This document shows positions 1,929-18,206 of a DNA stretch of 32,000 nucleotides, piece by piece (within the stretch, counting starts at the first letter, position 1; the number at the start of each line of letters is the position of its first letter). Made by a program: the position numbers and the translations under genes. The notes under the pieces are model-generated. The model saw only the letters and a program-made list of their open reading frames with translations. It did not search any database and was not told the origin of the DNA. This stretch comes from an uncultured Candidatus Scalindua sp. (GTDB lineage: Bacteria > Planctomycetota > Brocadiia > Brocadiales > Scalinduaceae): NCBI GenBank assembly GCA_964344685.1, contig CAYFOK010000007.1, positions 79,771 to 111,770 on the forward strand, in the 5' to 3' direction.

Positions 1929-2006
1929 CGGGGCGTGGCTCAGCTTGGCTAGAGTGCCTGCCTTGGGAGCAGGAGGTCGCTGGTTCGAATCCAGTCGCCC
2001 CGACCA
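1929..2006 (+). tRNA. tRNA-Pro (anticodon UGG), with encoded CCA
   Basis: Hand-folded cloverleaf. Acceptor CGGGGCG/CGCCCCG. D stem GCTC/GAGT. Anticodon stem CCTGC/GCAGG with loop CTTGGGA (anticodon TGG, G37). T stem GCTGG/CCAGT with loop TTCGAAT. Discriminator A followed by CCA. Confidence 0.95.
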
Positions 2007-2008
2007 TT
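1962..2008 (+). repeat. attL: 47-bp core repeat (3' half of tRNA-Pro from the anticodon loop through CCA plus TT)
   Basis: Identical 47/47 to 18374-18420 in direct orientation. Confidence 0.85.
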
Positions 2009-2012
2009 CATA

Positions 2013-3074
2013 TCAACAACTTACGACATCAGGGTGGTTCTCATTTTCACCCACTGTCGCCAAATTGTCGCCAGAATTCAGTATCTGGATAGTAGATCGA
2101 AGCTTTTCCGGGCTGAGGTGAGCATACCGCTGAGTAGTCTTAACGTCCTTATGCCCTGCCAAACCCGCAACTGAATAAAGATCAGCACCCTTCTGAACTA
2201 ACTTTGAACAAAAATCATGCCTTAGATCGTGAAACCTGAAATTCTTGATACCTACTTTCCTGCACGTATCCCTGAAAGACTTACCAACCCAATTCCGGTT
2301 ATAAGGTTTGCCATTCTTACCATAACCAAATACATAGACGTTTTCCTTATCCATATATATCATTTTAAGTAAATTATGGACATTATCAGTCATTGGTATG
2401 CTATGTGGCTCCCCATTCTTTGTCCTCTCAAGGTTGATCATCCGGGAAAAGATATTAACCTGGTTCCACTCCAGATTAATAATGTTGGATAGTCTCAATC
2501 CTGTTTCCCTAGCAATTGTAACAATAGGCTTTAACCATTCAGGCAGTGCATTCATTAACCGCCCTTCTTCGTCTTGAGAAAGATATCTTACCCGTTTGAC
2601 ATCACCGCTGGGAATCTTGAATCTGGCAAAAGGAGTCTCGTCAACCAATTCCCAATCATGAATAGCCAGATTATAAGCATGTCGTAATAGACGAAGCTCG
2701 TGATTTACAGTAACATCCCCCACCCCATCATTACGTCTGTCTGTAATAAATCTAGAAAGATGTCTGGGCTTTACATCGTTAAGTAACTTCTTACCAAAAC
2801 ACTGAAGTATCCTTTTTGAGAAATAAATATCATTTTTGTAGGTAATTGTCCCCTTGTTTGGCTTAGAATGCTCAGCAAGATATTTATCAATCAGGCTTGC
2901 TACGGTTATCTTATTTCCTTTCGGTTTCTTAAAAAAGGAACCTTCGATAATTTCCATCCTGATTTTCGCCTCTATTGCCTGCGCAAGTTTTCGATTTGAA
3001 GTTCCAAGGCTTTTTTCTACTTTTTTTCCATCATGCCTTATTTTAGTCCACCAGATTCGGCCTCTTAAATACAT
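2013..3074 (-). CDS. int: tyrosine recombinase / phage integrase
   Basis: Catalytic motifs are readable: TGLRLSNIINLEW (Arg), HDLRH (His-x-x-Arg), GHKDVKTTQRYAHL (His, Tyr). The likely start is the ATG at 3074, preceded by AAGGAGG. The ORF track extends it to 3158. Confidence 0.9.
   Translation of the reverse strand: MYLRGRIWWTKIRHDGKKVEKSLGTSNRKLAQAIEAKIRMEIIEGSFFKKPKGNKITVASLIDKYLAEHSKPNKGTITYKNDIYFSKRILQCFGKKLLNDVKPRHLSRFITDRRNDGVGDVTVNHELRLLRHAYNLAIHDWELVDETPFARFKIPSGDVKRVRYLSQDEEGRLMNALPEWLKPIVTIARETGLRLSNIINLEWNQVNIFSRMINLERTKNGEPHSIPMTDNVHNLLKMIYMDKENVYVFGYGKNGKPYNRNWVGKSFRDTCRKVGIKNFRFHDLRHDFCSKLVQKGADLYSVAGLAGHKDVKTTQRYAHLSPEKLRSTIQILNSGDNLATVGENENHPDVVSC
2049..2073 (+). promoter_or_regulatory. 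candidate integrase arm-type binding site (ACCCAC TGTCGCCA AAT TGTCGCCA), copy 1
   Basis: This 25-bp sequence is repeated exactly at 18207-18231. Internally it holds two TGTCGCCA octamers 11 bp apart. It lies inside the 3' end of int, 41 bp from the att core. Confidence 0.5.
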
Positions 3075-3129
3075 ATTTTTACCTCCTTTCCGAAGCCTGA
3101 CGGTGTCTGAATGACTGTTACCGGCAGAA

Positions 3130-3396
3130 TTATATATCATTTCTGATAGTATCTCCAATAATTTTATCAGATGCTTCTTCTACTTGATTTATATTGCGTT
3201 TCATGGAAGCCATTAGCGCATTTATATCATTAAGATCAAAGAGAACTCTTCGACCCAACTTTACTGAGGGTATTTTCCCCTGAGCTGCCCATTCATACAA
3301 CGTCTTTACCGAGAGAGAGGTGTACTCAGATACTTTTTTGATACCTACATATCTTTCTCTGTTAATCTCATTTTTATCATTTAATTTGTTTGCCAT
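3130..3396 (-). CDS. xis: excisionase-family helix-turn-helix DNA-binding protein
   Basis: 88 aa, directly upstream of int on the same strand. The segment VSEYTSLSVKTLYEWAAQGKIPSVKLGRRVLF is typical of excisionase/MerR-like HTH_17 proteins. Confidence 0.75.
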   Translation of the reverse strand: MANKLNDKNEINRERYVGIKKVSEYTSLSVKTLYEWAAQGKIPSVKLGRRVLFDLNDINALMASMKRNINQVEEASDKIIGDTIRNDI

Positions 3397-3975
3397 ATTG
3401 TCCGCTGTTAGTATTTATTTGAACTACTGATAACTAATGATGAAGATATTGCGACGAGAATTTTAGATTATTCTAAATTTTGACTGTTACTGCCATTAAC
3501 ATTAAATGCCATATATAAACAAATCATATACCAAATAAATGGTAAGACAGATTATTCTATTTGCACATAGTAATGGAGGTTTTTAAATTGTTATTTGAGA
3601 AAGGGTTACACTAAAATAGTTTTTATTAATATTTTTCTTTTTCAAACAAATGTGTGACAAGAAATCAAGGAAAAGTATGCAATGACACAAAAGCATGCCA
3701 GACATCAATGTACCATCATGGAACGATTCTTAGTCTTACTGCATCATAATCATTCAGCGTCGAACCAATGAAGCATTTTCAGCAAAACATCAATATACTT
3801 CATAGTATTTAAGAAAGCTGATTTGCAAAATAGAAAGAGTCTATCACCGCCAGGCAGCAATTAAGAATACACTTGAAACAATCCAGATATACTATAAAAT
3901 TCGCTTTTATACAGAAACGATAATAGAGCTCGTTTGCCGTCATTAACCAAAACCACAAAATAGTATAATTATAGA

Positions 3976-4422
3976 ATGAAGAAAATATATTTAGACGTTT
4001 GCACTTTATGCCGTCCATTTGATAATCAGTCTATGATGCGAATACGTCTTGAAACAGACGCATACTATTTAATATTAAAAAGCATTCAGGATAAAACTTT
4101 CGAAATTATTGTATCTCCAGTACACTTCAAGGAGGTTGAAGCTATAGAAGATATATATGAACGTATAGAATTAACCGTTTTGTTAAATAAATACGGTAAA
4201 AAACCAACATTCAAATTGAATGAAATTAAAAAAAGAACTGAATATTTAAATTCCTTAAATTTTGGAATTGCTGATGCTGCCCATTTAGCATTTGCTGAAA
4301 CATCGGCAGATTATTTTATTACCTGCGATGATAAATTGTTAAAGAAAATTAGCAAAATAAAAGATATTAATATACAAGCAATTAATCCTGTAAACTTTTG
4401 TACAAAGGAGAACTTGAGGTGA
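3976..4422 (+). CDS. PIN-domain protein (VapC-like toxin candidate)
   Basis: 148 aa with PIN-like acidic residues in context: IYLDVC, FKEVEAIED, IADAAHLAFAE, ITCDDKLL. Confidence 0.8.
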   Translation: MKKIYLDVCTLCRPFDNQSMMRIRLETDAYYLILKSIQDKTFEIIVSPVHFKEVEAIEDIYERIELTVLLNKYGKKPTFKLNEIKKRTEYLNSLNFGIADAAHLAFAETSADYFITCDDKLLKKISKIKDINIQAINPVNFCTKENLR

Positions 4423-4622
4423 AGCAAGGACAATATATAAAAGAAGAGAAATTACTAAAACAAGGTGTTGATATTTTAATGGAAAAATTAGGACCAATAG
4501 AAACAAGTAGGTTTTTATCCTTTCCACCACAGAAGAGAATAGAATCTGTGAAAAGGCATCAAAAGTGGCAATCCGAGCTTGATAAAAACAAGTTTTTAGA
4601 TGATTTATTCGGAAGCAAGTAG
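4419..4622 (+). CDS. small protein translationally coupled to the PIN gene (antitoxin candidate)
   Basis: The GTG start overlaps the PIN stop (GGTGA) and AAGGAG lies 8 nt upstream. The LGPIETSRFLSF segment resembles small partner proteins of PIN genes, recalled from memory only. Confidence 0.45.
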   Translation: MKQGQYIKEEKLLKQGVDILMEKLGPIETSRFLSFPPQKRIESVKRHQKWQSELDKNKFLDDLFGSK

Positions 4623-4705
4623 GCTTTTCTAAATTGAAGTAAACTTATATGAAATATAGAAAAGGCCAAAGTACTGAGAAAAATATATAACGAGAGGAAA
4701 GGATC

Positions 4706-4891
4706 ATGAAAAATTATGAGAAGTTATTTCGAGAACAAATGCAAAATCCTGAATTTGCCAAAGCCTACCATGAAGCTAAATCAGAGAAGAAATTAGATGA
4801 GATGTTGGACGATTTAAAAGAAAAAATAGATAAAGATGCCCCTAAAAATCTTTTGCTGGAAACTATCAATTCAATTCAACATCAGATATGA
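4706..4891 (+). CDS. small helical hypothetical protein
   Basis: 61 aa with GAGAGGAAAGG upstream of the ATG. The charged helical sequence fits no family I recognise. Confidence 0.35.
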   Translation: MKNYEKLFREQMQNPEFAKAYHEAKSEKKLDEMLDDLKEKIDKDAPKNLLLETINSIQHQI

Positions 4892-4967
4892 TTACATCAG
4901 AATATTTTATAGAAAAAATTATTAATACTTCAAATAAATAACCAGAAATGTTTATAAAGAGGTAAAT

Positions 4968-5198
4968 ATGTCACGTTGTCATGTATACGGTTCAATAAAG
5001 GCAAAAGAAGAGTACACCAACGAAGTATTTCAGATCGATAACAAGCCTGTTTTAGTAGAACATATTCCAGCAATAGTCTGCGTCCGCTGTGGTGAAGAAA
5101 CATTTAGCCGTGAAACCACAGAACGGATTCGCCGCATGGTACACGGAGAAGCAAAACCTGTAAAATCTGTTTCAATGGAAGTATTCACTTTTATATAA
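4968..5198 (+). CDS. YgiT-type (MqsA N-terminal-like) zinc-finger protein
   Basis: 76 aa. VEHIPAIVCVRCGEETFS is the hallmark second zinc knuckle of YgiT-type fingers. The first knuckle is degenerate (RCHVYG). Confidence 0.55.
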   Translation: MSRCHVYGSIKAKEEYTNEVFQIDNKPVLVEHIPAIVCVRCGEETFSRETTERIRRMVHGEAKPVKSVSMEVFTFI

Positions 5199-5648
5199 AA
5201 ACCAAATAAAAAAGCATCTAACACCTATAAGCCCCCCACACACACACACACTTTTCAAGTAAGAAACCACCCCATATGATTAACAGATCAGAATAACATT
5301 ACATAAAAGATACTATAATCGAAATCACCAAGCATATGGGCAACATGACAATCGCAATATCGATAGTGACTCTAGCAAATATAATTGCTGTAATTATTCA
5401 GTTATACAAATAGAATTTAGCACACCAACATTATAAGGAACGAAAATGTGACCCCTTGCTTGTCACAAGAAAAAGAAGAAGTAGAGTTTTTTGGTTTTAG
5501 TTCTAACTGTATTGTTTTACTTAGGCTTAAGGCCAGAATGGGGAGTATGATTTACTCCCTGTTTTGGCCTGTTTTGATTTGCTTACTTGACAATTACTTG
5601 ACAGTAATAAAGTTTACATTAGACTGCTGAAGGATTAAGAAAAGTGAA

Positions 5649-5667
5649 GGTTGTTTCTTAAAATCAA
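5649..5667 (+). repeat. third, degenerate copy of the GGTTGTTTCTTA-N-ATCAA motif
   Basis: GGTTGTTTCTTAAAATCAA. The first 12 nt are identical to 17947-17958 and the orientation matches. Confidence 0.4.
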
Positions 5668-5866
5668 TGGGGGAAAAAGAGTATAAATTAAAGCTTCAGA
5701 TAATAAGAGGATTGGGGATCAGATAAAAATAGAATAATTATAGTTTTTATGACTATTTATTTGAGAAACACATTATCAAATCATTTTTAACTTTAATAAA
5801 AAAGGTGAGATGTGACCTCGTTCAGTTGTAATATAATTAAACTTAAAAGGTTACAGCTATTCTGCA

Positions 5867-6571
5867 TTACTCTCCATCAATTTGTTCGCTGCTATGAATC
5901 GTGTAATGCCGTTCAATGAATTTTATTGTGTTCGTGAATTTAACTTTGTCCTGTTTAGGTGCTTTTTGTTGCATCTCCTTTAACATTGGCAAAAGATAGC
6001 ATTTATGTCTATTACTTCCGTTTATAAATTGGTATGCATATACCTCTTCATCAAAAATAGAGAACTTCCTCATTGGTATATCCTGATTTATAAATCCATG
6101 GTTAAGAGGGCTGACATGCAATGAAATAAGTCGCTTTGAAGCTGACGGGGTTAAGACTAAACCAATCCAGTTTTGATCTTCGCAGTATTCGTATGCTTCA
6201 AGAAAGGCTTTGCCCATAATAATCTTACTGTTATGGCCTATAATTAAATTCCCATAAGAAACAGCGCCTCTTACTGGTAATCGCTTGAGAATGCAATTTC
6301 TAATAAAACCCTTTGATTTGTTAATGAACTCAGGGTATCCAGAATCATCTGGTGATGTTGCGTAAATAATAAATGTATCCGCATAGAATGTAAAGTTTAC
6401 TAAAGACTCAAAGTGAGTTGTTTGTTTCTGTAACTTTTTTAAAACTTCGTCAATAGAATCTTTAAGGATATCTAGGTACAATGAACGGTCTTCATTGTCA
6501 ATTTTATATTTGAATCCTATAACATCAAAGTGAGCAATCCAAGTGTTGTAACTTTTCCAATTATTATCCAT
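5867..6571 (-). CDS. nucleotidyl-cyclase-like palm-domain protein (class III cyclase / GGDEF / mCpol-like fold)
   Basis: 234 aa. Motifs are spaced as in class III cyclases: HFDVIGFK (F-x-D-x-x-G-F), FYADTFIIYA (second metal Asp), LPVRGAVSYGNLIIG (R-x-G-x-x-x-G), GKAFLEAYEYCE. Recognised by eye only. Confidence 0.5.
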   Translation of the reverse strand: MDNNWKSYNTWIAHFDVIGFKYKIDNEDRSLYLDILKDSIDEVLKKLQKQTTHFESLVNFTFYADTFIIYATSPDDSGYPEFINKSKGFIRNCILKRLPVRGAVSYGNLIIGHNSKIIMGKAFLEAYEYCEDQNWIGLVLTPSASKRLISLHVSPLNHGFINQDIPMRKFSIFDEEVYAYQFINGSNRHKCYLLPMLKEMQQKAPKQDKVKFTNTIKFIERHYTIHSSEQIDGE

Positions 6572-6642
6572 GTTATTCTTTCAGCTAATGCTGAAATCAC
6601 TTGCCAAAATGCACCAACTTTTTGGACAAGTGGATTGATTTA

Positions 6643-7239
6643 TTAGGAATTTTCTTTTCTTTCGATCTCTTCTTTGTACCATTTATCTATATGTTTTGCT
6701 CCCTCAAGAGACTTAACAGATGAGGCTGTCATTCCTAGTATTAAGGCAATCTTTTGATAATTTAATCCCTCTTTTCTAAGTTTTAAAATCAAGCACCTTC
6801 GACGATAGGGAACCTCAGCAGGAGCATCTAAGCTTGCACTTTTTTCTAGAGATTTGAGTCTCTGTTCTTCCGTTTGATGAAAAATAGGAGTTCTGAAAAA
6901 TTTTCCTTCAAAATAATCCCATCCTAGTAAGTGTGCGATTAGTTCTAATAGTTCAGCTATAACATGAGGTTCGCTATTTTCTTTAACGATTTTTTTTATG
7001 TCACTTTTTAGAATATCTAGGTCAGCCAAAATTGTAGCCTTCAATATTTCATCATTAGTTACAACCTGTATAATTCTTTTTTTTATTTTTCCTATAATCT
7101 TTAAACACTCATCTTTAAAATATTTTGGATTCTGATATGCCGATGCCATATCATGGGAGCATCTGTCTTTTCCATTATACTCCCAAGATGTGATTTCCAT
7201 CTGTAAGTTATAAGGGTAACATTTTTTCTTTTTATTCAT
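6643..7239 (-). CDS. hypothetical protein with a C-terminal sigma-70 region 4 / LuxR-like HTH
   Basis: 198 aa. The C-terminal RRRCLILKLRKEGLNYQKIALILGMTASSVKSL is HTH-like. Confidence 0.5.
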   Translation of the reverse strand: MNKKKKCYPYNLQMEITSWEYNGKDRCSHDMASAYQNPKYFKDECLKIIGKIKKRIIQVVTNDEILKATILADLDILKSDIKKIVKENSEPHVIAELLELIAHLLGWDYFEGKFFRTPIFHQTEEQRLKSLEKSASLDAPAEVPYRRRCLILKLRKEGLNYQKIALILGMTASSVKSLEGAKHIDKWYKEEIERKENS

Positions 7240-7583
7240 AACAAGTTATTCAATAATTCCCAGGTAACACCACTATGGCAACGATATTCAGAAGAATCAA
7301 ATTACTATACTTCTTTATAAGGAACAATTGCAGTCTGAAATATCAAAATAGCATTTATAGCAGATTATTTTTTTAGCCTGAGTTGCAATTCACGATTCTT
7401 TACAAATTCATCAAATTCATTCTTTTGTAGGCCAAGATTTTTGTTAATTTTTATCCATTTCTATCTCCTTTATCTTGCCTACACACTTCTTTTCTGTTTA
7501 CGGTCACACCCTTTGGAGCGCTAATACCTAGCTTGATCGTGTCTCTTCATTTCATTAACAAACATTTCTTGATCATCATTTTA

Positions 7584-7982
7584 TTAAGTCCACTTTAGAT
7601 AGTCAGGTAATTCAGGGGAACCAAACTTTTCATTATATTCATCTTGAAATACCTTCTGTTTATCGAGAGCATCGTCCAGTAACCGTTTCCAATTATCCAG
7701 ATCGGTGCCAAATTGCTGAAAGTCATCGTCTACAAAATGAGCGTACCTGATAGTGCCTATTTCTAACTTTGTTGGTTTCCCCTCGACAAGGTCTTCAAAG
7801 TATAGTTTATCTCGGGTCATAGTTTTTTGTACATCTGTCCAATAGTAATGCGGTAGGTCTGATACAAATGTAAACTTTAGATAGTGTTTCTTGAAAAAAG
7901 ACTTTGCAAACACAGCGTAGACGTGAATATATTTCTCTCCCTCTTTGAAAATATCAACAAAATCTAATTTGTGGAGCCTCAT
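7584..7982 (-). CDS. hypothetical protein
   Basis: 132-aa ORF with AAGGAGG upstream of the ATG. I recognise no family. Confidence 0.5.
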   Translation of the reverse strand: MRLHKLDFVDIFKEGEKYIHVYAVFAKSFFKKHYLKFTFVSDLPHYYWTDVQKTMTRDKLYFEDLVEGKPTKLEIGTIRYAHFVDDDFQQFGTDLDNWKRLLDDALDKQKVFQDEYNEKFGSPELPDYLKWT

Positions 7983-8361
7983 TCTTTCACCTCCTTTTGC
8001 TCTCTATATTAGTTTATAGTATCTGGAATACTGGTTGTCCTGTTTTCCTGTATACGATCACCATGGCTTCCAAGTATCATCACCCTCTTTGTATGGCGTG
8101 AACAGAAAATACAAACTTAATGCCAATAACAGCCCACCGATTTTATTGCTGAAGAATATCATGGTTAACAGGGATAAAAAAACATAAAACCAAGCAAATT
8201 ATTCTAAATATTTTTATGTCTTTTTTGTTAATTATCATTGTTTTTCAAATCACCCTGTATTTCTTTTTTTCTAATTTAAAGGATACATCTAAACACCACA
8301 TTTCAACAGAAAAGCAACAACAAAAATAGCAAGCCGCCTTTAATATAAAGAGATTTTTTCT

Positions 8362-8670
8362 TTAATAATTATTCTTTTTTGTCTGAACCCATCCATATAG
8401 AAATACAAGCACGGTAATGATATTTATTACTGCCCACGCTTCACGAAATAAATGAATTGGTTCTATGGGGTTGTAGACAATAGCGATTACTATGAAGGCC
8501 ACAGTAATAAAGCCACAACCCTTTTCTTTGTAATATTGATAAGCGATATATGCAGCACACCCACAGATTGCCCAGCGCATAAGCTGATAGTAATAGTACG
8601 GCAGCGAAAGCAGTGCGATAAGTAACAAGGCTATCGGCCCAATCCATAACAGTTTATTTGTTTTTGCCAT
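8362..8670 (-). CDS. small multi-pass membrane protein
   Basis: 102 aa with three or four hydrophobic segments. Confidence 0.6.
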   Translation of the reverse strand: MAKTNKLLWIGPIALLLIALLSLPYYYYQLMRWAICGCAAYIAYQYYKEKGCGFITVAFIVIAIVYNPIEPIHLFREAWAVINIITVLVFLYGWVQTKKNNY

Positions 8671-8938
8671 GCCTTAAAATTTAATAAATGCAAAGGATAA
8701 GAAAGATACGAGAGATCTGTGCTCTATAATGAGCCTTCAATATATTCACCTAGATCTACCATTCCTTGCATGAAGTTGACACAATTACGACATGCCATAT
8801 GAGTACCTTTACATAAGTCTTCATTAATGATTTATCAAATTTGTAAAGTATGAATTTGGTGAAGATATTGACAATCACCCATTACCACGACGAGACTCTC
8901 TACGGTAATCAAGTATCTCTCGAAAGATGTCATGTTTC

Positions 8939-9856
8939 TCAAAGCCTTAAGTCATGCGACTTCATCCTCCGCCCATATTTCATGTAAAGTATCTCTCGAA
9001 GGCTGTCACGTTTCTCCCAGTATTCTAACTCTAGATGCTCAATGCCCATCTTTTTGTAACATAATGCAATATGACGGTAGCATTCTAACTTGGAATAGCT
9101 TGCATAGCTTACAACCTCAGGCTTCAGCTCTATAGCCTTCTTAAAATTCTCTATCGCCTCCTCATATAGGCTAAGCCCCTTCTGTACGTAACCAAGAGAT
9201 TGGTAGTAGAATGAATCCTTTGGATTCAGCTCTATAGCCTTCTTATAATTTTCTATTGCATCCTCATATAGACTATCCATGTGTTGTGCGTTGGCAAGTT
9301 CATAGTAGTAGTCTGCAACCTTTGAATTCAGCTCTATAGCCTTTTCATAATTTTCGATTGCATCCTCATATAGACTAAGCTTATGCTGTGCACGACCAAG
9401 GTAATAGTAGTAATCAGCAACCTCTGGATTCAACTGTATGGCTTTCTTACAATTCTCTATTGCATCATTATTTAGGCTATCCCCAATTGAACTATCTTCG
9501 TATTGTGCACGGCCAAGGTGATAGTAGTAGTCTGCAACCTCTGGATTCAGCTCTATAGCCTTCTTACAATTCGATGTTGCATCCTCATATTCACACAGAG
9601 GATATTGTGCACGGCCAAGGTAATGGTAGTAGTCTGCAACATCTGGATTCAACTGTATGGCTTTCTCACAATTCTCTATTGCCTCGTCATACTCCCCTTT
9701 TATAATATGCTCTTTCCCTTTGAAGAAATAAAAATCAGCATCTCTGACTTGTTCTAAAGCAGTAAGCCCTCTAATGACAAGTTCTTTTCGTACTTTTGGG
9801 TCGTACCTTGTAATGGCAGTCGATCTTTTTACAATAGCCTTGTTCTTCTCGGTCAT
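8939..9856 (-). CDS. tetratricopeptide (TPR) repeat protein
   Basis: 305 aa with about seven AIE(N)xKKAIELNPxxADYYYxLGxAQ units. The start codon is 1 nt after the stop of the upstream J-domain gene. Confidence 0.9.
   Translation of the reverse strand: MTEKNKAIVKRSTAITRYDPKVRKELVIRGLTALEQVRDADFYFFKGKEHIIKGEYDEAIENCEKAIQLNPDVADYYHYLGRAQYPLCEYEDATSNCKKAIELNPEVADYYYHLGRAQYEDSSIGDSLNNDAIENCKKAIQLNPEVADYYYYLGRAQHKLSLYEDAIENYEKAIELNSKVADYYYELANAQHMDSLYEDAIENYKKAIELNPKDSFYYQSLGYVQKGLSLYEEAIENFKKAIELKPEVVSYASYSKLECYRHIALCYKKMGIEHLELEYWEKRDSLREILYMKYGRRMKSHDLRL
9121..9700 (-). repeat. intragenic tandem DNA repeats (about 96-117 bp period) encoding the TPR units
   Basis: GGATTCAGCTCTATAGCCTTCTTAnAATT-type blocks recur at about 9121, 9226, 9322, 9424, 9541 and 9644. 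Confidence 0.8.
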
Positions 9857-9857
9857 A

Positions 9858-10748
9858 TTAGTATTCTACCTCTTGGATTATTTCTTTATACTCCGCAACA
9901 AGTCCATCTAGTAATGTCTGATTATCGTCGATCTCTTCTTTTATATTGTCTGCAAGTTCCTGTAGTAAATCCCTGTCCTCTTTTTTCGCATCATCAACTT
10001 TCACTTTCAATTTATAGGTCTCGTCTTCTTTCAAATCATCAAGTTCCGCATACCGTTTTGCAATAATTCCAAGAATGGTGTCATAGTCTGCCTTCAATCT
10101 GGCAAGCGTCTCCACTGGGGTCTCTTTAGCTATTTTCTCTTCTCGTTCTGCTCGACTCATATATTCTCTTAGGGTTCTTTGATCCTTATTCCTGTATGCC
10201 TCATTTATCACAGCCATGATACTATGATATTTTTTTCTCCGCTTGTCGTCTCTTGCCTTGTCTGGATGGAATTTAATAGCAAGCCTTCGATATAGTCTTT
10301 TTAGTTCTTCTTTATCTTCCGTGTTAAGAGTTGGACCACTTTCTTCTTGCTCCAGATATTCTCTATATTCATCTGCTGCCTCGGACGCCTCGCCTCCAAG
10401 ATCATTAATCTTCTGCCTTTCTTCAGTAAAAGTCTGATTTACTTCATCTTCAATGCTATCTAAATCATGTTGAGAAGTTTTTTTACCCTGAGCAAGGTCA
10501 ATCCTAAGCTGATATTCTTTCACTTTTAATTTTATTTTGTCAAGTTTCACATAAAGCAAGCCAACCCTTGAATTATATTCACCCAAGAATACATTCAATG
10601 TAATATTTATGTTCTGGACTTGGATTAATAACTCAGACGCCTCATTCTCTTTTTCCGCTATACGAGCTTTCCAAATATTTAATTCCTTCTGGACATCACC
10701 TGTAGAAGGAACTAATTTATTACCCTTTGCTTTGTTATTTTCTGCCAT
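9858..10748 (-). CDS. J-domain (DnaJ-like) protein with flanking coiled coils
   Basis: 296 aa. The central LKRLYRRLAIKFHPDKARDD...AVINEAYR segment carries the HPD tripeptide. No Gly/Phe or zinc-finger regions of full DnaJ are present. Confidence 0.85.
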   Translation of the reverse strand: MAENNKAKGNKLVPSTGDVQKELNIWKARIAEKENEASELLIQVQNINITLNVFLGEYNSRVGLLYVKLDKIKLKVKEYQLRIDLAQGKKTSQHDLDSIEDEVNQTFTEERQKINDLGGEASEAADEYREYLEQEESGPTLNTEDKEELKRLYRRLAIKFHPDKARDDKRRKKYHSIMAVINEAYRNKDQRTLREYMSRAEREEKIAKETPVETLARLKADYDTILGIIAKRYAELDDLKEDETYKLKVKVDDAKKEDRDLLQELADNIKEEIDDNQTLLDGLVAEYKEIIQEVEY

Positions 10749-11039
10749 CGTGGAAACATTTTCCGATATTTTTCAACTTAAGATTATTTTACTTACACAT
10801 AAGTAATGTCAATCATTATACTTTGCAGGAAAGTTCATCTATTTGAATCCTTAAAAGAATAAACTTAATTTATAAAAGCATATCCTACCATCTAATGGTT
10901 GATTAATTTGTAGAGTGAAGTTGCTAGCGGTATAGTAGTGAGGATAGATATCAAAATCAAGATTAAAAACAAGGACTTACGACACATTTGATTAATTTGC
11001 AAGTATTTAATAAATAAAAACTTACAAAATAGAATGTTA

Positions 11040-11058
11040 GTTGTTTCTTGGTATCAAG
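11040..11058 (+). repeat. GTTGTTTCTTGGTATCAAG: downstream copy of the ori-like 19-mer
   Basis: 18/19 identical to 17948-17966 in the same orientation. On the minus strand it reads CTTGATACCAAGAAACAAC. Confidence 0.5.
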
Positions 11059-11152
11059 GTAAAGAAAGCATGGTTACTTCACCTTTTTTATTAAATTAAA
11101 AAGATTTGGTAACATACTTCTAAAAAAAAATTTAGAAACCATAGTTTTAAAA

Positions 11153-12061
11153 CTACAATTTCTCAATTTTTATTTCATCATTAATCTTTTTTTTATCAGT
11201 AACAGAAATCTTCACTTTTTTTAATCCTTTCTTGGTCTTCACAACATAATGACCGTCAATTATACCAATGATTTTATACATGTTATTATCCTCAACCTCT
11301 AATTCTTCAGGTTCAAGTTGTGGTTCCTGAACATCATCAATAACAGTCGCAGGAGTACGAATGTTATGCTTATTCATATTATGAAAGATGTTCATAAAAC
11401 CAAATCGAAAAATCAATCCAGCACATACAACCAAACCAACAAATATTAAAATATGCTTGAACGGAATACTTTTAATCTTTTCACCTTCACCTATTATCAT
11501 TGAACAGTACATTCCAAAGACTTTTTGATCTTGTTTTATTCTTTTTGTCTTGAAGCATTCATCTCCTGAGTAGAATTTATAGGTAAAACTTTTACCAATC
11601 GAGTTAGAACGCCTTACCGCTTTTATTTCATACTCTGCCAGCTCTCTCAACTCTTTAGCAAGGCAACGAGTATCCTGGGTTATTAAATAGATATCACACC
11701 CCAAATGGCGATGCATTTGAAAGAAAAGAAAAACATTAACATCATAAAATTTTCTATGAAAATAGTTACCACTCTGCGCTTCGTCAATAATATAAATAAC
11801 ATTAGAGTTCATGCAAAAAGTCTCTTGGTATTTATTATTGAAAAATGTAGAGAGCCCACCAGCATCAGCAATGAACTTATCAAGATCATCTCCAAGTTTC
11901 ATATTCTTGATATTTGTATATACTCTTACATCAACATCTCTTGCCTTAGGAACCCATTTGTCTAATTCATCAGACCAAGTATAATAAGATTTTAATACGT
12001 GATTAACAGCATAGTACGTTTTACCGGAACCAATTTTACCTTGAATTAATCGTATGGCCAT
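11153..12061 (-). CDS. Zot / pI-type filamentous-phage assembly ATPase
   Basis: 302 aa. N-terminal P-loop IQGKIGSGKTYYAV, Walker B VIYIIDEAQ, a central TM helix (ILIFVGLVVCAGLIFRFGF) and a short C-terminal domain give the standard Zot architecture. Confidence 0.85.
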   Translation of the reverse strand: MAIRLIQGKIGSGKTYYAVNHVLKSYYTWSDELDKWVPKARDVDVRVYTNIKNMKLGDDLDKFIADAGGLSTFFNNKYQETFCMNSNVIYIIDEAQSGNYFHRKFYDVNVFLFFQMHRHLGCDIYLITQDTRCLAKELRELAEYEIKAVRRSNSIGKSFTYKFYSGDECFKTKRIKQDQKVFGMYCSMIIGEGEKIKSIPFKHILIFVGLVVCAGLIFRFGFMNIFHNMNKHNIRTPATVIDDVQEPQLEPEELEVEDNNMYKIIGIIDGHYVVKTKKGLKKVKISVTDKKKINDEIKIEKL

Positions 12062-12062
12062 T

Positions 12063-13453
12063 TTATGTTTTCCTCACAAATTTAAGTCTCTGATTTTCAA
12101 AGTCCTTCTCATTAAAGAGAATTTCGACAGAGAGAAGCAAGATTAACTCTGTTTTAGTTTTGTTGATATCCTCTGACCTGAACATTTTTCCAAGATATGG
12201 AATATCACCAAGAAGCGGTATTTTCTGATTTTTTTGTTAGAAGAATTTTCCATTAAACCACCTACATAAATTTTCTGCCCATCATTAATCAATGTAGTCA
12301 TTTCAAGTGAGTTTTTAGTAAACGATGGTGAGTCAATCAAAGGGTTTTGAACGGTTTGAACAATGTCACTGATCTCTTGACTAAGATATAATTTAACAAC
12401 ATTGTTTTCTTCAACGTCAACCTTGACGTTTAGTAAAACGCCAACGTCTCGATATTCGATATTTTCAGATCGTAAACCATTTGCAGATACAGAAGTACCT
12501 TTTCGGATAGGTTCTTCACGTCCAATTTTAATAACGGAGGTCTGACCGTCCTGGACTAATACATGTGGCTTTGAAAGAATCTCTACTTTACTTTCAGAAT
12601 TTAAAATGGTGATGAAAGTGTTTACATCTCTATGAAAAGTAAAAGCTTTGAGCCCTTTACCAGCAAGACCAGTAGTCAAAGACGTTATTCCCTCTGTTAA
12701 TAGAGATATTTGACCGCCTCTATTATTTTTCGTCCTAAAGAAGTACTCGACACCATATTGAAGAGCATCGTTTAAAGTGACTTCCATAATTGTGAATTCT
12801 ACAAGTACCTGTTTTGGCCGTTTGTCAAAGGTTTTAATAACCTCCTTAACCTTATTATAATCGTCTTTACCGGCTTTTATGATAAGTACGTTAATGCTTT
12901 TGTTTTCAGTAATAGCAATTTCCGGGAAGACATCATTCAGTAAAGATTTTAGATTTCCAGAGCTTTCATATTGCAAACGATACAGATAAACATTTTTTGT
13001 GTCATCCGGTGAAGTTTGTATATTAAGATCATTCAGGTTTTCGTTATTATGAATTCCATATAACGCACCGTTTTTTATTAGTTGATAGTTTTTACTATTT
13101 AAAACGGTACGAACCATTTTCAGAATTTCATCTCTTTTAAATTTACCTTTTATTTCGATATCAACATTACCGATCAAATCATCAACGATAATGTAATTCT
13201 CTTTGATGATTCCCATCAAAAGACTAACAACATCTTTGAGTTCAACTTTCTCAAATTGCATATCAACGTCAATACCACCTCTTTTAAGTTCGGGCTTTAC
13301 CTTGCCCTCTTTTACTTTCCATTGCCAGTTTTCGACATTTTTTGTTTTAGCCGTATTGGTAAAAAGTTTTTTCTCTGGTTTCTTTTTTATGAGCGCACAA
13401 CCCGGAGCACAAAAACATATTACAAATACTAAGACACAGATTTTTCTCAGCAT
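12063..13453 (-). CDS. pIV/GspD-type secretin, interrupted by a frameshift at an A7 tract (12229-12235)
   Basis: The secretin core is readable (VLVEFTIMEVTLNDALQYGVEYF). The annotated frame ends at 12143 in nonsense sequence. The -1 frame after the A7 run reads NQKIPLLGDIPYLGKMFRSEDINKTKTELILLLSVEIL, the canonical secretin C-terminus, and stops at 12063-12065, 1 nt before the Zot ATG. The likely start is the ATG at 13453 (AAGGAG upstream), giving the signal MLRKICVLVFVICFCAPGC. Confidence 0.85.
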
Positions 13454-13559
13454 TTTTACAGTCTCCTTTTCAATAAGGAAATTTCTGCCAGTTAAAAAAT
13501 TCACGCCAAAGGTTAAGTTTTTTTGTCATGCTTTTTAAACTTCTGGAAACGTGTTGATT

Positions 13560-13805
13560 TTAATAACAATATAAAAAACCCAAAACAAAAAGGAGTTGTG
13601 ATTTTTGTTTTGGGTTTTTTACTAAAAGATCGGGGACGTACCGGTAACTTTTTTGATGAGAGTTATAACAAACCCAACCACTCAATAAATCCTTTTTAAG
13701 TAGTTCAATACAATAAGAGAGGCTTACAACTTTTTTAAGTCTGTTATATTCATCTTTTTTACTTAGTTTGTAAGTATTAGTATTAACCTTCTTCTTAGTA
13801 ATCAT
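13560..13805 (-). CDS. hypothetical basic protein
   Basis: 81 aa with an ATGA overlap onto the upstream ORF. Its last ~20 codons are a read-through of a perfect hairpin, so the 3' end is doubtful. Confidence 0.35.
   Translation of the reverse strand: MITKKKVNTNTYKLSKKDEYNRLKKVVSLSYCIELLKKDLLSGWVCYNSHQKSYRYVPDLLVKNPKQKSQLLFVLGFLYCY
13573..13620 (-). terminator. perfect 19-bp stem / 10-nt loop hairpin flanked by A/T runs
   Basis: AAAAAACCCAAAACAAAAA ggagttgtga TTTTTGTTTTGGGTTTTTT. It looks like an intrinsic terminator on either strand. Confidence 0.5.
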
Positions 13806-14026
13806 CCCAATCCTTCATTTTTGTTCCATTCATTCATTTCCATTTCTACACATTGTTCTGCTGTTAAAGTTTTTCCACTATCCAAATACATTTCCCAACC
13901 AACTAGACCATATTCCCTATAACTTAGACCGGTAGAATCAGAAAAATCACCTTCACGCAAACCACATTTATTTCTCAAATGCATTATATATCTATCAATA
14001 AATTCTTCTTTTTCTATATCTACCAT
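13802..14026 (-). CDS. hypothetical soluble protein (phage module)
   Basis: 74 aa. The start is 1 nt after the stop of the pVI-like gene. No family recognised. Confidence 0.5.
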   Translation of the reverse strand: MVDIEKEEFIDRYIMHLRNKCGLREGDFSDSTGLSYREYGLVGWEMYLDSGKTLTAEQCVEMEMNEWNKNEGLG

Positions 14027-14027
14027 T

Positions 14028-14363
14028 TTACAACCTCACAAAAGGTATCATCCGTATAGCCATTCTGAAAGCTACAGCAGACATAATAAGTGAAAACCCT
14101 TCAACAACTTTCAGGTGTATCGCGAACCACGCCGTAATGCCTGTAAAGTTGATTAAATAGCTATTGACGCCGTAAGTACCGTCAATGGTATTTAACGTGC
14201 TCATGACTCCCTCAATGAGCATATAGATCATTCTGCTAAACAAGACCGGAACAATGGTAATTACCAGCGTCCAGATGAATAACTTCATAGCGGTGAAACG
14301 TACAACACTATAACCAACCCAACTACCAAAGGCCGAAAGTAACCAGCTTAATAATGCAGGCAT
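14028..14363 (-). CDS. pVI-like minor coat / membrane protein
   Basis: 111 aa, multi-pass and hydrophobic. It starts MPALLSWLL, compared with M13 g6p (112 aa) starting MPVLLG, and sits directly after the pIII-like gene as in Ff phages. Confidence 0.55.
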   Translation of the reverse strand: MPALLSWLLSAFGSWVGYSVVRFTAMKLFIWTLVITIVPVLFSRMIYMLIEGVMSTLNTIDGTYGVNSYLINFTGITAWFAIHLKVVEGFSLIMSAVAFRMAIRMIPFVRL

Positions 14364-14386
14364 TTTTTAGACTCCCTTGAATTTAA

Positions 14387-15604
14387 TTACACTCCCATTG
14401 CTATAAAAACAGCTCTAATAGCCATTAATCCCAATACAAAACTACCAAACAGATCAACCATCCAATCTAATGAACAAAAATCAATAGTCATGGATTTCCC
14501 AAAGAGTGTCATTGGAAGTGAACAGGTTGCACCGGTTACATTGATCTGGCTATCCGTGGCCAGAAGTACCAAAGGATTGGATGCAAGATATCCGGTAATT
14601 AAACCAGTCCAGTCCGTTTCTCCAACCTCAGAAACATCTCCCGGAAGGCTTGCGTCATAGGTTGAACTGTCCGCAGTACCTACAGAACCAGAAACAGTAC
14701 CAACAGGAATAGACCCGGTATCGTCAAGACCTGATATATCATCTATACCGTCCTGGTTAGCATCAGTAAAATTTCCTGGAGGTTGTGAAACAGGAGTTCC
14801 AGTACCACACACACCACCATAATCAATCCCAGTTTCGTCCTGATTCATAATACCGTCAAAGCAGGTTTCCGCAGGAGGACACACAAGACCAAAATTAAGC
14901 TCACACACTCCACCACAATCAACACCTGTTTCGTCTTGATTCTGGATACCATCGAAACAATCAGGCAGTTGTGGAACATCTTCTTCAAACTCATAAAAAT
15001 CAACAGCTAAATCCAAAATAGGACCTTGATCTGTTGCACCTATAGTGCCTGAATAAACATTCCCCATTCCTCCCGGAACCGGATCATTAAGAAAAGGGTC
15101 ACCGATATTAGTATCCTGAAGAAATGTATCAGTTGCACTAATTACTCCTTTCCATTTAACATCACCATTTTCATTCATATATATCCAGAAACCAACATTT
15201 GAACCGGTAATAGCATTTGCTAATGCCTGTGACATACTCGTATTAGTCAACGTTGTCCACTGTGTAGTATTTGACCAGATTGAATCCATCCCCGGTAATA
15301 CAGGATAAAACTTTTTACCATCATTTTGATTTGTATATACAATTGAATCGGTACTTGAACCAAGAAAGGTATCAATAAAATCAACCTGACCTGTTGAAGT
15401 GTTAACATTACTAATTTGTCTTAGAGCAATGTCTCCATTGTCTTTTGTAAAATACATAATTGCACCAACTGTTAACGCAGCAGCAACATTAATACCTACC
15501 CAGAGAGCAAGAGGTACGACTGCATCTGCCTTTCTGGTCTGGACATAGAAAGAAGAAAAGAGAAATGTGATAGTTAAAACAAAAACTATTAAATATTTTT
15601 TCAT
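14387..15604 (-). CDS. pIII-like adsorption / minor coat protein
   Basis: 405 aa. It has an N-terminal signal and a central duplicated Cys-rich module. The C-terminal GKSMTIDFCSLDWMVDLFGSFVLGLMAIRAVFIAMGV resembles the M13 g3p membrane-anchor region in pattern (GK..IDC...LF.G.F..L). Confidence 0.6.
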   Translation of the reverse strand: MKKYLIVFVLTITFLFSSFYVQTRKADAVVPLALWVGINVAAALTVGAIMYFTKDNGDIALRQISNVNTSTGQVDFIDTFLGSSTDSIVYTNQNDGKKFYPVLPGMDSIWSNTTQWTTLTNTSMSQALANAITGSNVGFWIYMNENGDVKWKGVISATDTFLQDTNIGDPFLNDPVPGGMGNVYSGTIGATDQGPILDLAVDFYEFEEDVPQLPDCFDGIQNQDETGVDCGGVCELNFGLVCPPAETCFDGIMNQDETGIDYGGVCGTGTPVSQPPGNFTDANQDGIDDISGLDDTGSIPVGTVSGSVGTADSSTYDASLPGDVSEVGETDWTGLITGYLASNPLVLLATDSQINVTGATCSLPMTLFGKSMTIDFCSLDWMVDLFGSFVLGLMAIRAVFIAMGV

Positions 15605-15612
15605 AATTACCT

Positions 15613-15735
15613 TTAACTATATGTAATTGTATGAATAACTTTTTTAACTACCCAAATAACCGCCAATAATCCCACGATAGTGGAAGCAAATATAAAAATC
15701 TTTGATGTGTCTATACTTATCATTGAATAATCCAT
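15613..15735 (-). CDS. 40-aa major-coat-like protein, paralog 1
   Basis: MDYSMISIDTSKIFIFASTIVGLLAVIWVVKKVIHTITYS: acidic N-terminus, one TM helix, basic C-terminus (a Pf3-type coat layout with no signal peptide). This is the internal ATG of track ORF 15613-15798. Confidence 0.55.
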   Translation of the reverse strand: MDYSMISIDTSKIFIFASTIVGLLAVIWVVKKVIHTITYS

Positions 15736-15812
15736 AGTTTTTTCCTGATAGAAGAATTTATAAAAATGTTGGCCAGCCTCTAGAAAGCCAACCAACACCC
15801 GGCAAGGAATCG

Positions 15813-15935
15813 TTAAGAACGATTAGCTAGTTTGATAACCTTTTTTACTGCCCATATGCCAGCAATAGCGGTAACTATTACACCTGCCAGAACAAGCACC
15901 TGAGTAGTATCAATGGCCAATGTACTGAAATCCAA
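15813..15935 (-). CDS. 40-aa major-coat-like protein, paralog 2 (not in the ORF track)
   Basis: My translation: (M)DFSTLAIDTTQVLVLAGVIVTAIAGIWAVKKVIKLANRS. TTG start with AAAGGGGGTG upstream. 18/40 identical, ungapped, to paralog 1. Confidence 0.5.
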   Translation of the reverse strand: MDFSTLAIDTTQVLVLAGVIVTAIAGIWAVKKVIKLANRS

Positions 15936-15964
15936 GACTATCACCCCCTTTCCTGTTATAAAGG

Positions 15965-16270
15965 TTAAACTGCGTATTTAACACACACGTAAGCCAGCAG
16001 AGAACCACAGACCACACCCGCCAGACCCATAAGGAAATTCTCTGACCATACACCCTGCAGGGATACGGAAGAGAGGAAAACATGTATTGAATTTACAGGA
16101 GCATCAATTGTCATATTGCCAGAGCACAGGAAATTCAGAGGGGTCATACCGGAAGACATTAATACATCGCCATTCACGCCATTGGAAGTGATATTGATCA
16201 GACCGTTATAATTATTAGAAGAGATAACCACGTCCGACATATCACCACAATCATAGTTAGTAATAGCCAA
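15965..16270 (-). CDS. hypothetical protein with a C-terminal TM anchor
   Basis: 101 aa. TTG start with AAGGAG 8 nt upstream. C-terminal LMGLAGVVCGSLLAYVCV. Confidence 0.45.
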   Translation of the reverse strand: MAITNYDCGDMSDVVISSNNYNGLINITSNGVNGDVLMSSGMTPLNFLCSGNMTIDAPVNSIHVFLSSVSLQGVWSENFLMGLAGVVCGSLLAYVCVKYAV

Positions 16271-16274
16271 GTTT

Positions 16275-16439
16275 TTAACTCCTTGTCATAATATTAAAAA
16301 GCCATCCAACCATCATGGAGAGAACACCAAAAGACAACACCAGAGTAAAAAAATAATCGAACATAACATTTCCGGTTATATTTACCGGAAGAATGTCCCA
16401 CACTCCACCCCAATCACCAAAAGCACCTATAACAAGCAT
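16275..16439 (-). CDS. 54-aa hydrophobic protein (not in the ORF track)
   Basis: My translation: MLVIGAFGDWGGVWDILPVNITGNVMFDYFFTLVLSFGVLSMMVGWLFNIMTRS. GGAAAGGTGTGGATT lies immediately before the ATG. It is nearly identical to the initiation region of the gene at 16774. Confidence 0.4.
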   Translation of the reverse strand: MLVIGAFGDWGGVWDILPVNITGNVMFDYFFTLVLSFGVLSMMVGWLFNIMTRS

Positions 16440-16528
16440 AATCCACACCTTTCCAATTTTAAGTTTAAGAGGGAGGCCAGGAGAATAGCTCCATGTACTA
16501 CGGAGCTAACCTCCCCCTTAAAAACAAA

Positions 16529-16774
16529 CTATTTTTGTTTACCGTTTTCTAAAGTAACACGCTTAACATCCATACGAATTTCATTCCCTGACGGAAAGAA
16601 CTTGTTGAAATCAACCTTGACAGGGTCTCCCATGTTTAGAAGCTGTTCACCTTTAACTTTCTCCACAGGAAGAAATACTCTAAACGTGTCTCCAAGATCT
16701 TTACACATCACTTTAAAACCTACTCCCTTATCAGAAGCATTTACTAAACTAGCAACCATTCCATCAACTACCAT
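16529..16774 (-). CDS. candidate ssDNA-binding protein (gV position and size)
   Basis: 81 aa from the internal ATG at 16774, preceded by GAAAGGTGGTGGATT. It is small and beta-rich-looking and lies immediately after Rep. The call rests on position and size only. Confidence 0.4.
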   Translation of the reverse strand: MVVDGMVASLVNASDKGVGFKVMCKDLGDTFRVFLPVEKVKGEQLLNMGDPVKVDFNKFFPSGNEIRMDVKRVTLENGKQK

Positions 16775-16796
16775 AATCCACCACCTTTCAAAAAAA

Positions 16797-17858
16797 TTAA
16801 ACATTATTAAAAAAATAATCAGAACCGGAATATTCATCTTCATTTTCCGGTTCTGATTCCTCTACATCGCTACCTTTAAAAAGCTTATGCCCGGCAAAAT
16901 CAATTTCTATAAGTCCAATCTTAACTGCTTCGATTACATATGAGGCCAACTCTGAGTTAATTCCGGTTTCCTTAAAGGTTTTATAGACAACGCCTTTAAG
17001 TGTTCCAAATGTCACATACTCTTTTTCTTCTTCCTGGGTAAGTTCCTCCATGTCTTCACCGCCTATGTCAGCCATGTCTTTCAGGCCGTAACAATTACCA
17101 AACTTTGAAACCATCCTTTTCCCTTTCATGTCAATAATGATTTCTTTTAATCGATCATCATTAATATCAAGACCAAACTTCATTGCATATTTTGAGATTT
17201 CCTTACCATACCCTTCTGTAACCGGCCTGATATCTGAAATCTGACCAAGACCAACTTTCAGAAGAACGTGCTCAAGGTCTTTCTTTATTGGGTCTAAGAA
17301 TGTTCCTTGTTCAGTATTCCGCATATTCACAACATGTCTATCAACGGTTAGATCGACTAACATATGAGAGTGTATATGCCATCCGGTTCCTTCTTTGTAT
17401 GTCACTTCAATATGTTCAACACCTCCACGTATATACTTTTTCCACCATGAACGCTCTTTTTTAAGCAGACTTGTTGATTTTTTGTAACATTCCAAAGCAG
17501 TCTTCAAACTATCCCTGTTTAATTCGTTTGCAGTAATGGTTAAGAGATGAGGGTTTTGCATATCTTTACCAAGTTTTTCCACCCTGCGAGACAGTATTGA
17601 CGCACGGTATGAATTGCACACCGGGCAAACTCTATCTTTACAGCGAACTTGCGGTTCAAAAAGCACACTTGATATATCTCCTTTCTTCGCTTTAACAAAA
17701 ATTGTATTCCCGCATATACCCATTCGTTTTGCTCTCGATTCCTGATCAACTTCACGAATAAGTTTTTCAATACGGAATAAAGTTTTTAACCTCCAACTAT
17801 TCTTAACGGTCACAACAGACTCTAACTTTTTCTTCTTCTTAACGGCACATTCACACAT
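16797..17858 (-). CDS. HUH rolling-circle replication initiator (pC194/pUB110 Rep_1-like)
   Basis: 353 aa. CKDRVCPVCNSYRAS (zinc-ribbon-like N-terminal motif), GWHIHSHMLVD (HUH motif) and GKEISKYAMKFG (catalytic Tyr motif) occur in the expected order. GGAGGT lies upstream of the ATG. Confidence 0.8.
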   Translation of the reverse strand: MCECAVKKKKKLESVVTVKNSWRLKTLFRIEKLIREVDQESRAKRMGICGNTIFVKAKKGDISSVLFEPQVRCKDRVCPVCNSYRASILSRRVEKLGKDMQNPHLLTITANELNRDSLKTALECYKKSTSLLKKERSWWKKYIRGGVEHIEVTYKEGTGWHIHSHMLVDLTVDRHVVNMRNTEQGTFLDPIKKDLEHVLLKVGLGQISDIRPVTEGYGKEISKYAMKFGLDINDDRLKEIIIDMKGKRMVSKFGNCYGLKDMADIGGEDMEELTQEEEKEYVTFGTLKGVVYKTFKETGINSELASYVIEAVKIGLIEIDFAGHKLFKGSDVEESEPENEDEYSGSDYFFNNV

Positions 17859-17947
17859 AAATTACCTCCAAAAAAATCATTAAAAACGGCTGAAAATTGC
17901 CACATTGTAAGTTTCAATTTTTCAATGCCTTAAAAAATCGTGTTCCG

Positions 17948-17966
17948 GTTGTTTCTTAGTATCAAG
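17948..17966 (+). repeat. GTTGTTTCTTAGTATCAAG: upstream copy of the ori-like 19-mer, candidate Rep nick site
   Basis: On the minus strand it reads CTTGATACTAAGAAACAAC, about 90 nt upstream of the Rep ATG. CTTGATA is the nick-site core of pC194/pUB110/phiX174-type origins. Confidence 0.45.
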
Positions 17967-18009
17967 TCTATAGCTTCTTTCTCACAAATGAGCCAAATTG
18001 AGGCCAAAA

Positions 18010-18059
18010 AAAAACCAGTGTTTGCGCGCGCTTGGTGAGCGTGCTCAACACTGGTTTTT
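18010..18059. other. large hairpin: 13-bp stem (AAAAACCAGTGTT / AACACTGGTTTTT) with a GC-rich 24-nt loop
   Basis: Read directly. The loop TGCGCGCGCTTGGTGAGCGTGCTC can itself pair (GAGC/GCTC). It lies in the non-coding region upstream of Rep. It could be a minus-strand origin or packaging signal. Confidence 0.5.
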
Positions 18060-18134
18060 GTAGTTGATAAATTAATTTTTTTTACTATTATATTGTTGTT
18101 ATTCTTTTTCATTGGTGAATGGGAATAATAACTA

Positions 18135-18171
18135 GGAGGGCATAAGTTGCCGCTTATGTCTTCCTTTTTTT
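18135..18171 (+). terminator. terminator-like hairpin plus T7 run
   Basis: GGAGGGCATAAG ttgccg CTTATGTCTTCC (10/12 paired) followed by TTTTTTT. Confidence 0.4.
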
Positions 18172-18206
18172 AATAATAAAACTAAAAATAACTTTGAAAA
18201 AATAAA

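Follow-up and report, generated by a model that had tools for sequence, protein, structure and literature searches.

A two-gene operon in a 32,000-nucleotide (nt) stretch of DNA from an uncultured Candidatus Scalindua sp. (contig CAYFOK010000007.1), hereafter the window, encodes a J-domain protein of 296 residues (open reading frame 9858..10748, minus strand) and, immediately behind it, a tetratricopeptide repeat (TPR) protein of 305 residues (8939..9856, minus strand). Our preferred reading, which we hold with moderate confidence, is that this operon is a dedicated two-part Hsp70 co-chaperone module, in which the J protein would recruit DnaK and the TPR partner, which carries a short N-terminal tag, would give the specificity. 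Comparison with homologous loci places the module among class C J-domain co-chaperones, here with an exchangeable, tagged partner that has a gene of its own, and relates it to an uncharacterised pair of cyanobacterial genes. An initial annotation of this DNA had seen in the two genes a phage-borne hijacker of DnaK, a view that we replace here: the operon is cargo of the island and belongs to a general cellular module.

The J-domain protein and its tagged partner

The stand-alone J-domain that had been initially annotated in the 296-residue protein proved real on several counts. Pfam DnaJ (PF00226) matches residues 143-185 with 30.1 bits, which is above the curated gathering cut-off of 27.8. 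A profile of 43 relatives, when compared with the PDB, recovered solved J-domains (DNAJA1, E. coli DnaJ, CbpA, and others) with E values down to 7e-07, and the region matching these structures comprises helix II, the HPD motif, and helix III. The J-domain proper, helices II-IV, could be placed at 10131..10322 on the minus strand from the translation, the PDB matches, and the invariant HPD. The HPD codons (10260-10268, minus strand) correspond to H161-P162-D163, which is found in 43/43 relatives, and helix II is basic, as in DnaJ. A Pfam scan of the protein at E <= 0.01 revealed DnaJ as the sole domain, with no G/F region, zinc finger, or DnaJ_C, while an AlphaFold2 model computed from the relatives' alignment contains nothing but helices, with a mean predicted local distance difference test (pLDDT) score of 89 and a predicted template modelling (pTM) score of 0.77. 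This bears out the initial statement that the G/F, zinc-finger, and C-terminal parts of DnaJ are missing. Since the features of class A and B DnaJ proteins (G/F region, CxxCxGxG zinc finger, and/or C-terminal substrate-binding domain) are absent, we classify the protein as a helical scaffold of class C, within a superfamily that resembles Sll0909. Searches of PADLOC and PHROGs returned nothing informative for it.

The partner consists of the tag followed by about seven TPR units. Pfam TPR families match it, with an E value of 5.8e-40 for TPR_11, and the underlying DNA displays six 102-nt tandem repeats plus a degenerate last unit, which agrees with the seven units counted initially. The spacing of the two genes was also read correctly at the outset: the junction TAA-T-ATG (9854..9860, minus strand) is made of the J stop codon, one base, and the partner start codon. 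The same stop-N-ATG arrangement recurs in most of 33 independent loci as well as in loci L004, L007, L009, L012, and L133, and probably serves translational coupling of the two genes.

As defined by translation and alignment, the tag spans ~38 residues (9743..9856, minus strand) around a core R-K-E-L-V-I-R-G-L-x-A-L. Its consensus is M-x-E-x-E-K-S-L-V-K-x-S-x-A-L-T-R-F-D-P-K-A-R-K-E-L-V-x-R-G-L-x-A-L, with L, R, G, and L invariant in the alignment, and this one tag is common to partners with five different bodies: TPR, FGE-sulfatase, receiver, Lcl_C, and ankyrin. When metagenomes were scanned with a degenerate pattern of the tag alone, a J-family gene was present directly upstream in 31/33 confirmed loci; of the other two, one has no upstream sequence. 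With the window protein's tag as the sole query, a word-based search recovered 2 proteins only. In a Thermodesulfobacteriota genome (L017), the tag forms a separate 72-residue open reading frame (8747-8965) that overlaps the ankyrin-repeat frame (8949-9452), and the two may represent a frameshifted or split partner gene. We also observed that the disordered N terminus of the J protein itself (10706-10748; M-x-x-x-N-K...L-V...K-E-L) resembles the partner tag. MAFFT, when given mixed J and partner rows, put the tags onto the J N terminus, which may reflect a shared short motif or chance, and that alignment was dropped.

Spread of the module and exchange of the partner body

The J protein has homologues in 119 clusters (clustering at 90% identity), of ~290-300 residues and with 27-90% identity, most of them above 50%. 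They were assigned to Planctomycetota, Poribacteria, Chloroflexota, Atribacterota, Cloacimonadota, Elusimicrobiota, Thermodesulfobacteriota, Acidobacteriota, Chlamydiota, and bacteria of the candidate phyla radiation (CPR). A profile search of 1.84 billion representatives gave 65 matches at E <= 1e-30 and 1,386 at E <= 1e-10. Wherever a locus has enough sequence, the J stop and the start of a partner gene are only a few bases apart, as a rule in the form stop-N-ATG. Its body is a TPR array in most loci, an FGE-sulfatase domain in L001, a receiver domain in L007, ankyrin repeats in L017, and Lcl_C/DUF1566 in L185, and in 7/29 partners a Sigma70_r3 domain is inserted into the TPR protein. Natural fusions exist as well: J-TPR in L014 (561 residues) and P0140, J-PQQ propeller in P0166, and DUF6804-J in P0112 and P0121. 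That the J and TPR genes form a functional pair, as had been proposed initially, is strongly supported by the strict adjacency in the complete loci examined, the conserved 1-nt junction, and the natural J-TPR fusions.

Tag and body follow the J protein to different degrees. Averaged over pairs from 17 loci, identity amounts to 60% in the J protein, 57% in the tag, and 34% in the body. Tag identity correlates with J identity with a rho of 0.60 and body identity with a rho of 0.38, these being pairs that are not independent. Between the window and L004, the J proteins are 90% identical and the partners 58% identical, with a nonsynonymous divergence (dN) of 0.043 for the J protein and 0.316 for the TPR body. 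On this sequence evidence, the pair is a conserved module found across many phyla, with a conserved tag and a variable binding domain. The J homologues are distributed patchily, in a manner shaped by horizontal transfer, and are not housekeeping genes, nor are they phage genes, most of them being surrounded by ordinary chromosomal genes. The refuting finding named in the initial annotation, homologues that are ordinary chromosomal genes with no link to mobile elements, was thus borne out by half.

More distant relatives exist in cyanobacteria. In a search of 401 cyanobacterial genomes, the family profile was matched over positions ~146-286, well past the J-domain. The best locus was that of Synechocystis sp. 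PCC 7338/7339, where a J protein of 232 residues aligns to the family with 99% probability (hhalign; E 4.5e-18; 191 columns) over the N-terminal F..Y helix, the J-domain, and the C-terminal helices. Its J stop is separated by 4 nt from the start of the partner gene, which encodes a related tag, Y-S-S-N-L-V-K-K-G-L-D-L, and then TPRs. The Synechocystis pair thus shares with the window pair the gene order, homology beyond the J-domain, and a tagged TPR partner. In contrast, its J protein (~230 residues) is without residues ~83-130 of the window protein, and the pair is chromosomal, whereas that of the window is island cargo missing from relatives. The PCC 7338/7339 J gene is the presumed orthologue of sll0909. 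A third clade consists of 267-residue J proteins from CPR bacteria and a gammaproteobacterium, with a tag ...S-S-L-A-K-R-G-L-R-D-I.... Judged by these alignments, the window family, the Synechocystis pair, and the 267-residue clade are one superfamily.

Proposed mechanism and rival explanations

We propose that the J-domain would switch on the ATPase of the host's DnaK, for which the host genome has one full-length gene. The partner would be produced in step with the J protein via the 1-nt junction, the ~38-residue tag would couple it to the J protein, and the TPR array would supply specificity. The tag might act in either of two ways. As a docking element, it might bind the J protein's helical scaffold; alternatively, it might be a basic-hydrophobic-basic handle clamped by DnaK, by analogy with the delivery of IscU to HscA by HscB. 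DnaK prefers hydrophobic stretches with flanking basic residues, as is known from peptide-binding studies. The tag core, a hydrophobic L-V-V-x-G-L stretch between basic residues, fits this preference, which would be consistent with a DnaK handle. DnaK would then be directed to, or would regulate, whatever the TPR array binds. A small membrane protein of 102 residues encoded next to the operon (8362..8670, minus strand; Pfam DUF6804, E 5e-22) is likely a third component or membrane anchor and would probably set the complex at the membrane. The module as a whole would be an old, horizontally mobile cassette, which in the window is carried by a tRNA-Pro island, in the half that is not of phage origin.

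Several results weigh against this mechanism. A Foldseek search of the PDB with the J protein model found generic helical bundles only, with a best E of 0.02, and the AlphaFold2 model of a natural J-TPR fusion reached a pTM of 0.51, with pLDDT below 50 for the tag and linker. Sll0909, the one relative that has been studied, has been reported as a nonessential class C DnaJ-like protein, and no more is said of it (PMC13710413, table 1; PMC7609799; PMC9948308). A DUF6804 gene occurs near the J gene in as few as 4/14 loci. Finally, none of the loci has an Hsp70 gene linked to the cassette, and recruitment of the housekeeping DnaK is thus an assumption.

Among known systems, HscB (Jac1)-IscU-HscA (Ssq1) resembles the window module, since its class C J protein, in which a helical bundle is joined to the J-domain, serves one dedicated partner. 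Hsp70s of the HscA/Ssq1 type recognise a short motif in their IscU-type partner, and by this analogy the tag could be an Hsp70 handle. Jac1 shows a weak extended match to the family profile (residues 145-258, beyond the J-domain; E 0.002), but the window J protein has no HSCB_C Pfam match, the examined neighbourhoods contain no iron-sulphur genes, and the partner body of the family is variable, unlike the partner of HscB. The eukaryotic proteins DNAJC3 (p58IPK) and DNAJC7 (Tpr2) combine a J-domain with a TPR array that binds clients or chaperones, as does the window pair, and DNAJC3 (2y4t) is among the PDB matches via its J-domain. However, in DNAJC3 and DNAJC7 the TPRs precede the J-domain in one chain, while the window has two proteins with the J protein first, fusions are rare in its family, and there is no homology outside the J-domain. 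We know of no tag and no swappable body in DNAJC3 or DNAJC7. In E. coli, the modulator CbpM is encoded immediately downstream of CbpA, whose J-domain is among the PDB matches, and this arrangement of a modulator gene behind a J gene in one operon is like that of the window. CbpM is a small MerR-like protein with no tag and no repeats, unlike the window partner, and CbpA has a DnaJ-type C-terminal domain that the window J protein is without.

J-domain proteins decide where Hsp70 acts and, to our knowledge, only a handful of specialised bacterial J proteins are understood (DnaJ, CbpA, DjlA, and HscB). The design described here differs from these in that the J scaffold is conserved and the partner separate, the short tag being kept while the binding domain is exchanged, and horizontal transfer has carried it into at least ten phyla. 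It is also related to an uncharacterised DnaJ-like gene of cyanobacteria that occurs in a model organism. If it is true that the tag couples the two proteins, the way in which bacteria point DnaK towards new targets would follow a rule open to testing, and the function would become approachable in Synechocystis. In the literature searched, no paper mentions DUF6804 or this module, and searches on J-domain/TPR conflict systems and on J-domain defence systems turned up nothing about the family.

The first rival to be weighed stems from the location of the operon. It lies in a 16.4-kb integrative island in tRNA-Pro (1957..18420), recognised by its tRNA, att repeats, integrase, and phage genes. 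The operon sits between the 52-nt att direct repeats that bound the island (1957-2008 and 18369-18420), in the half without inovirus backbone: non-phage cargo extends up to about 11144, and the backbone, as delimited by blastn against other prophage copies, occupies 11145-18202. The initial proposal that the J/TPR pair redirects DnaK to phage assembly or replication amounts to a J protein encoded by the phage, through which host DnaK would be reprogrammed to serve inovirus replication, assembly, or the exclusion of superinfecting phages. There is a phage precedent for this, alluded to in the initial annotation: Rki of the T4-like phage RB43, a J-domain protein that acts on DnaK and sigma-32 (PMC3486835). 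Rki and the window J protein are both stand-alone J-domain proteins on mobile elements, and the operon is on the strand of the pI (Zot) gene (11153-12061), 404 nt downstream of it and within the att-bounded element. Synteny nevertheless largely refutes this explanation, which we regard as very unlikely. In BLASTN comparisons with four other inovirus copies, of which a congeneric genome supplied two, a further congener the third, and a different contig of the window's own genome the fourth, homology ends just after the Zot stop, at 11145-11151, and none of the four has the operon. Zot is present in 13/19 congeneric species genomes and the J gene in 0/19, nor is the J gene found in any of 40 related genomes searched (0/40). 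A scan of 2.9 million viral contigs in IMG/VR gave 41 matches, which were confined to the J-domain and scored <=38 bits, with no full-length family member. Moreover, the cassette has a promoter-like site of its own (a consensus match) and recurs without phage genes, the pIV gene of the prophage is frameshifted, and the Synechocystis branch is chromosomal. Rki is a lytic-phage gene acting on sigma-32, whereas the window family has not been found in viral contigs, lies outside the prophage backbone, and has a tagged partner. Since the operon is outside the shared backbone and missing from the other copies, and since the L004 cassette has no phage genes, its position makes it accessory island cargo, not a phage gene. 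The label "phage-island cargo" given to it initially was thus right about cargo of an att-bounded island that 40 related genomes lack, and wrong about specificity to the phage.

The same mobility could point to conflict. In a defence module, the variable repeat or lectin-like domain would sense an invader protein and the J protein would redirect or titrate DnaK, leading to growth arrest or a block of phage replication, with the tag restraining the J protein until triggered, as CbpM restrains CbpA. Such a role would fit the patchy distribution with 50-60% identity across phyla, the absence from 40 relatives, the island location, the fast-evolving TPR body, and the match of 10/29 partners to the TPR-S 'sensor' model. 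Some neighbourhoods would fit too, with L004 lying amid BrnT/A, HigB/A-like, and HicB genes, another relative beside an MmeI-type restriction enzyme, and a trypsin-like protease, with PADLOC protease-domain matches, adjoining in L009. Yet PADLOC 2.0 has no family match for the J protein, DUF6804, or the partner save a generic TPR match, no toxic effector domain was found in the core pair, many loci lie amid housekeeping genes, and in Synechocystis the genes form a chromosomal pair; signalling is suggested instead by the partners with a receiver domain and by neighbouring Ser/Thr kinases. We therefore consider a defence role unlikely. A link to transcription in some variants is suggested by sigma-derived domains, namely an inserted Sigma70_r3 in 7/29 partners (E down to 2.9e-21) and a true N-terminal Sigma70_r1_1 in a subset of J proteins (E 1.9e-16). 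One could extend this to a regulator that delivers DnaK to the transcription machinery (RNA polymerase or a sigma factor), or whose partner is itself a DnaK-controlled anti-sigma-like or sigma-like factor, the more so as control of sigma-32 by DnaK/DnaJ is established and a sigma-4-like helix-turn-helix (HTH) gene is linked to both Brocadiales loci. That this is the general function is distinctly unlikely, because neither the J protein nor the partner of the window has a sigma-derived domain, no examined locus combines the r1.1 and r3 variants, and most partners are plain TPR proteins. Least probable of all is that the J-like segment is a structural relic in a coiled-coil scaffold acting without Hsp70. 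Its Pfam score is barely over the cut-off, helix I is unmatched, and most of the protein consists of non-J helices, but HPD and conserved flanking residues of helices II and III persist in 43 sequences down to 32% identity, and in the Synechocystis branch too.

The two-part co-chaperone module that we favour also has a broader version, in which J scaffold and tag would be a general plug-in that couples any sensor domain (TPR, propeller, lectin-like, receiver, or sigma-derived) to Hsp70. The tag would be the DnaK handle, a ligand or signal would switch DnaK-driven remodelling or arrest, and on mobile islands the module might be an undescribed chaperone-based sensor for immunity or exclusion. 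We put this forward as a speculation that is rather unlikely to hold in full.

Neighbouring genes and the inovirus prophage

The promoter-like site of the cassette, TTGACA-18-AATAAT (10783..10812, minus strand; 11/12 in a consensus scan), is ~35 nt upstream of the J start. It falls within a stretch conserved with L004, with which DNA homology extends to 10863, and as a consensus match only it is putative. A gene at 6643..7239 (minus strand) encodes a 198-residue protein with a sigma-4/HTH_23-like C terminus, assigned by weak Pfam HTH matches, which is linked to the cassette in Brocadiales loci. In L004, the closest homologue (a Brocadiales metagenome contig), its orthologue is directly upstream of the J gene, and the cassette order is HTH gene, J, TPR, and DUF6804. 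Direct repeats flanking the L004 cassette, which would have indicated a circular cassette, were not found, the apparent overlap being a BLAST artefact. Just upstream of the J cassette, BrnT/BrnA is bracketed by a 97-nt direct repeat (L004:6059-6155 and 6994-7090; 87% identity) with a TTGACA... promoter-like core, which may be a repeated cassette promoter.

Other loci differ in their surroundings. In two unrelated loci, the J gene is immediately preceded by a Ser/Thr protein kinase gene, and in a third an MmeI-type restriction-modification gene is found two genes upstream (L012:6222-7865, L203:3102-4292, and L202:307-3345). The J proteins with sigma-70 region 1.1 at the N terminus are P0098-P0105 and L202:5001-6017, and the partners with inserted sigma-70 region 3 are those of L013, L159, and L177-L184.

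As for the rest of the island, a tRNA search placed the tRNA-Pro gene at 1929-2006, and a tyrosine integrase gene follows at 2013-3158. Each att site has, close by on its inner side, one copy of an exact 25-nt direct repeat (2049-2073 and 18207-18231) with TGTCGCCA twice within it, and these copies may be arm-type binding sites of the integrase. In addition to pI/Zot, the inovirus backbone contains the pIV secretin gene (12143-13504), a pVI-like gene (14028-14363), and Rep_1 (16797-17858). The secretin gene is frameshifted at about 12209-12236, which puts its last ~56 residues in another frame compared to an intact congeneric copy, and may be the mark of a defective prophage or an assembly error. 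At the pIV/pI junction of the window there is an 81-nt gap where 1 nt is usual. Further inovirus copies include a second, broken one in the same genome (contig C23, L154) and those of congeners (L151, L152, and L153). One congener has three intact Zot genes, tandem arrays also occur, and each copy has different DNA after Zot.

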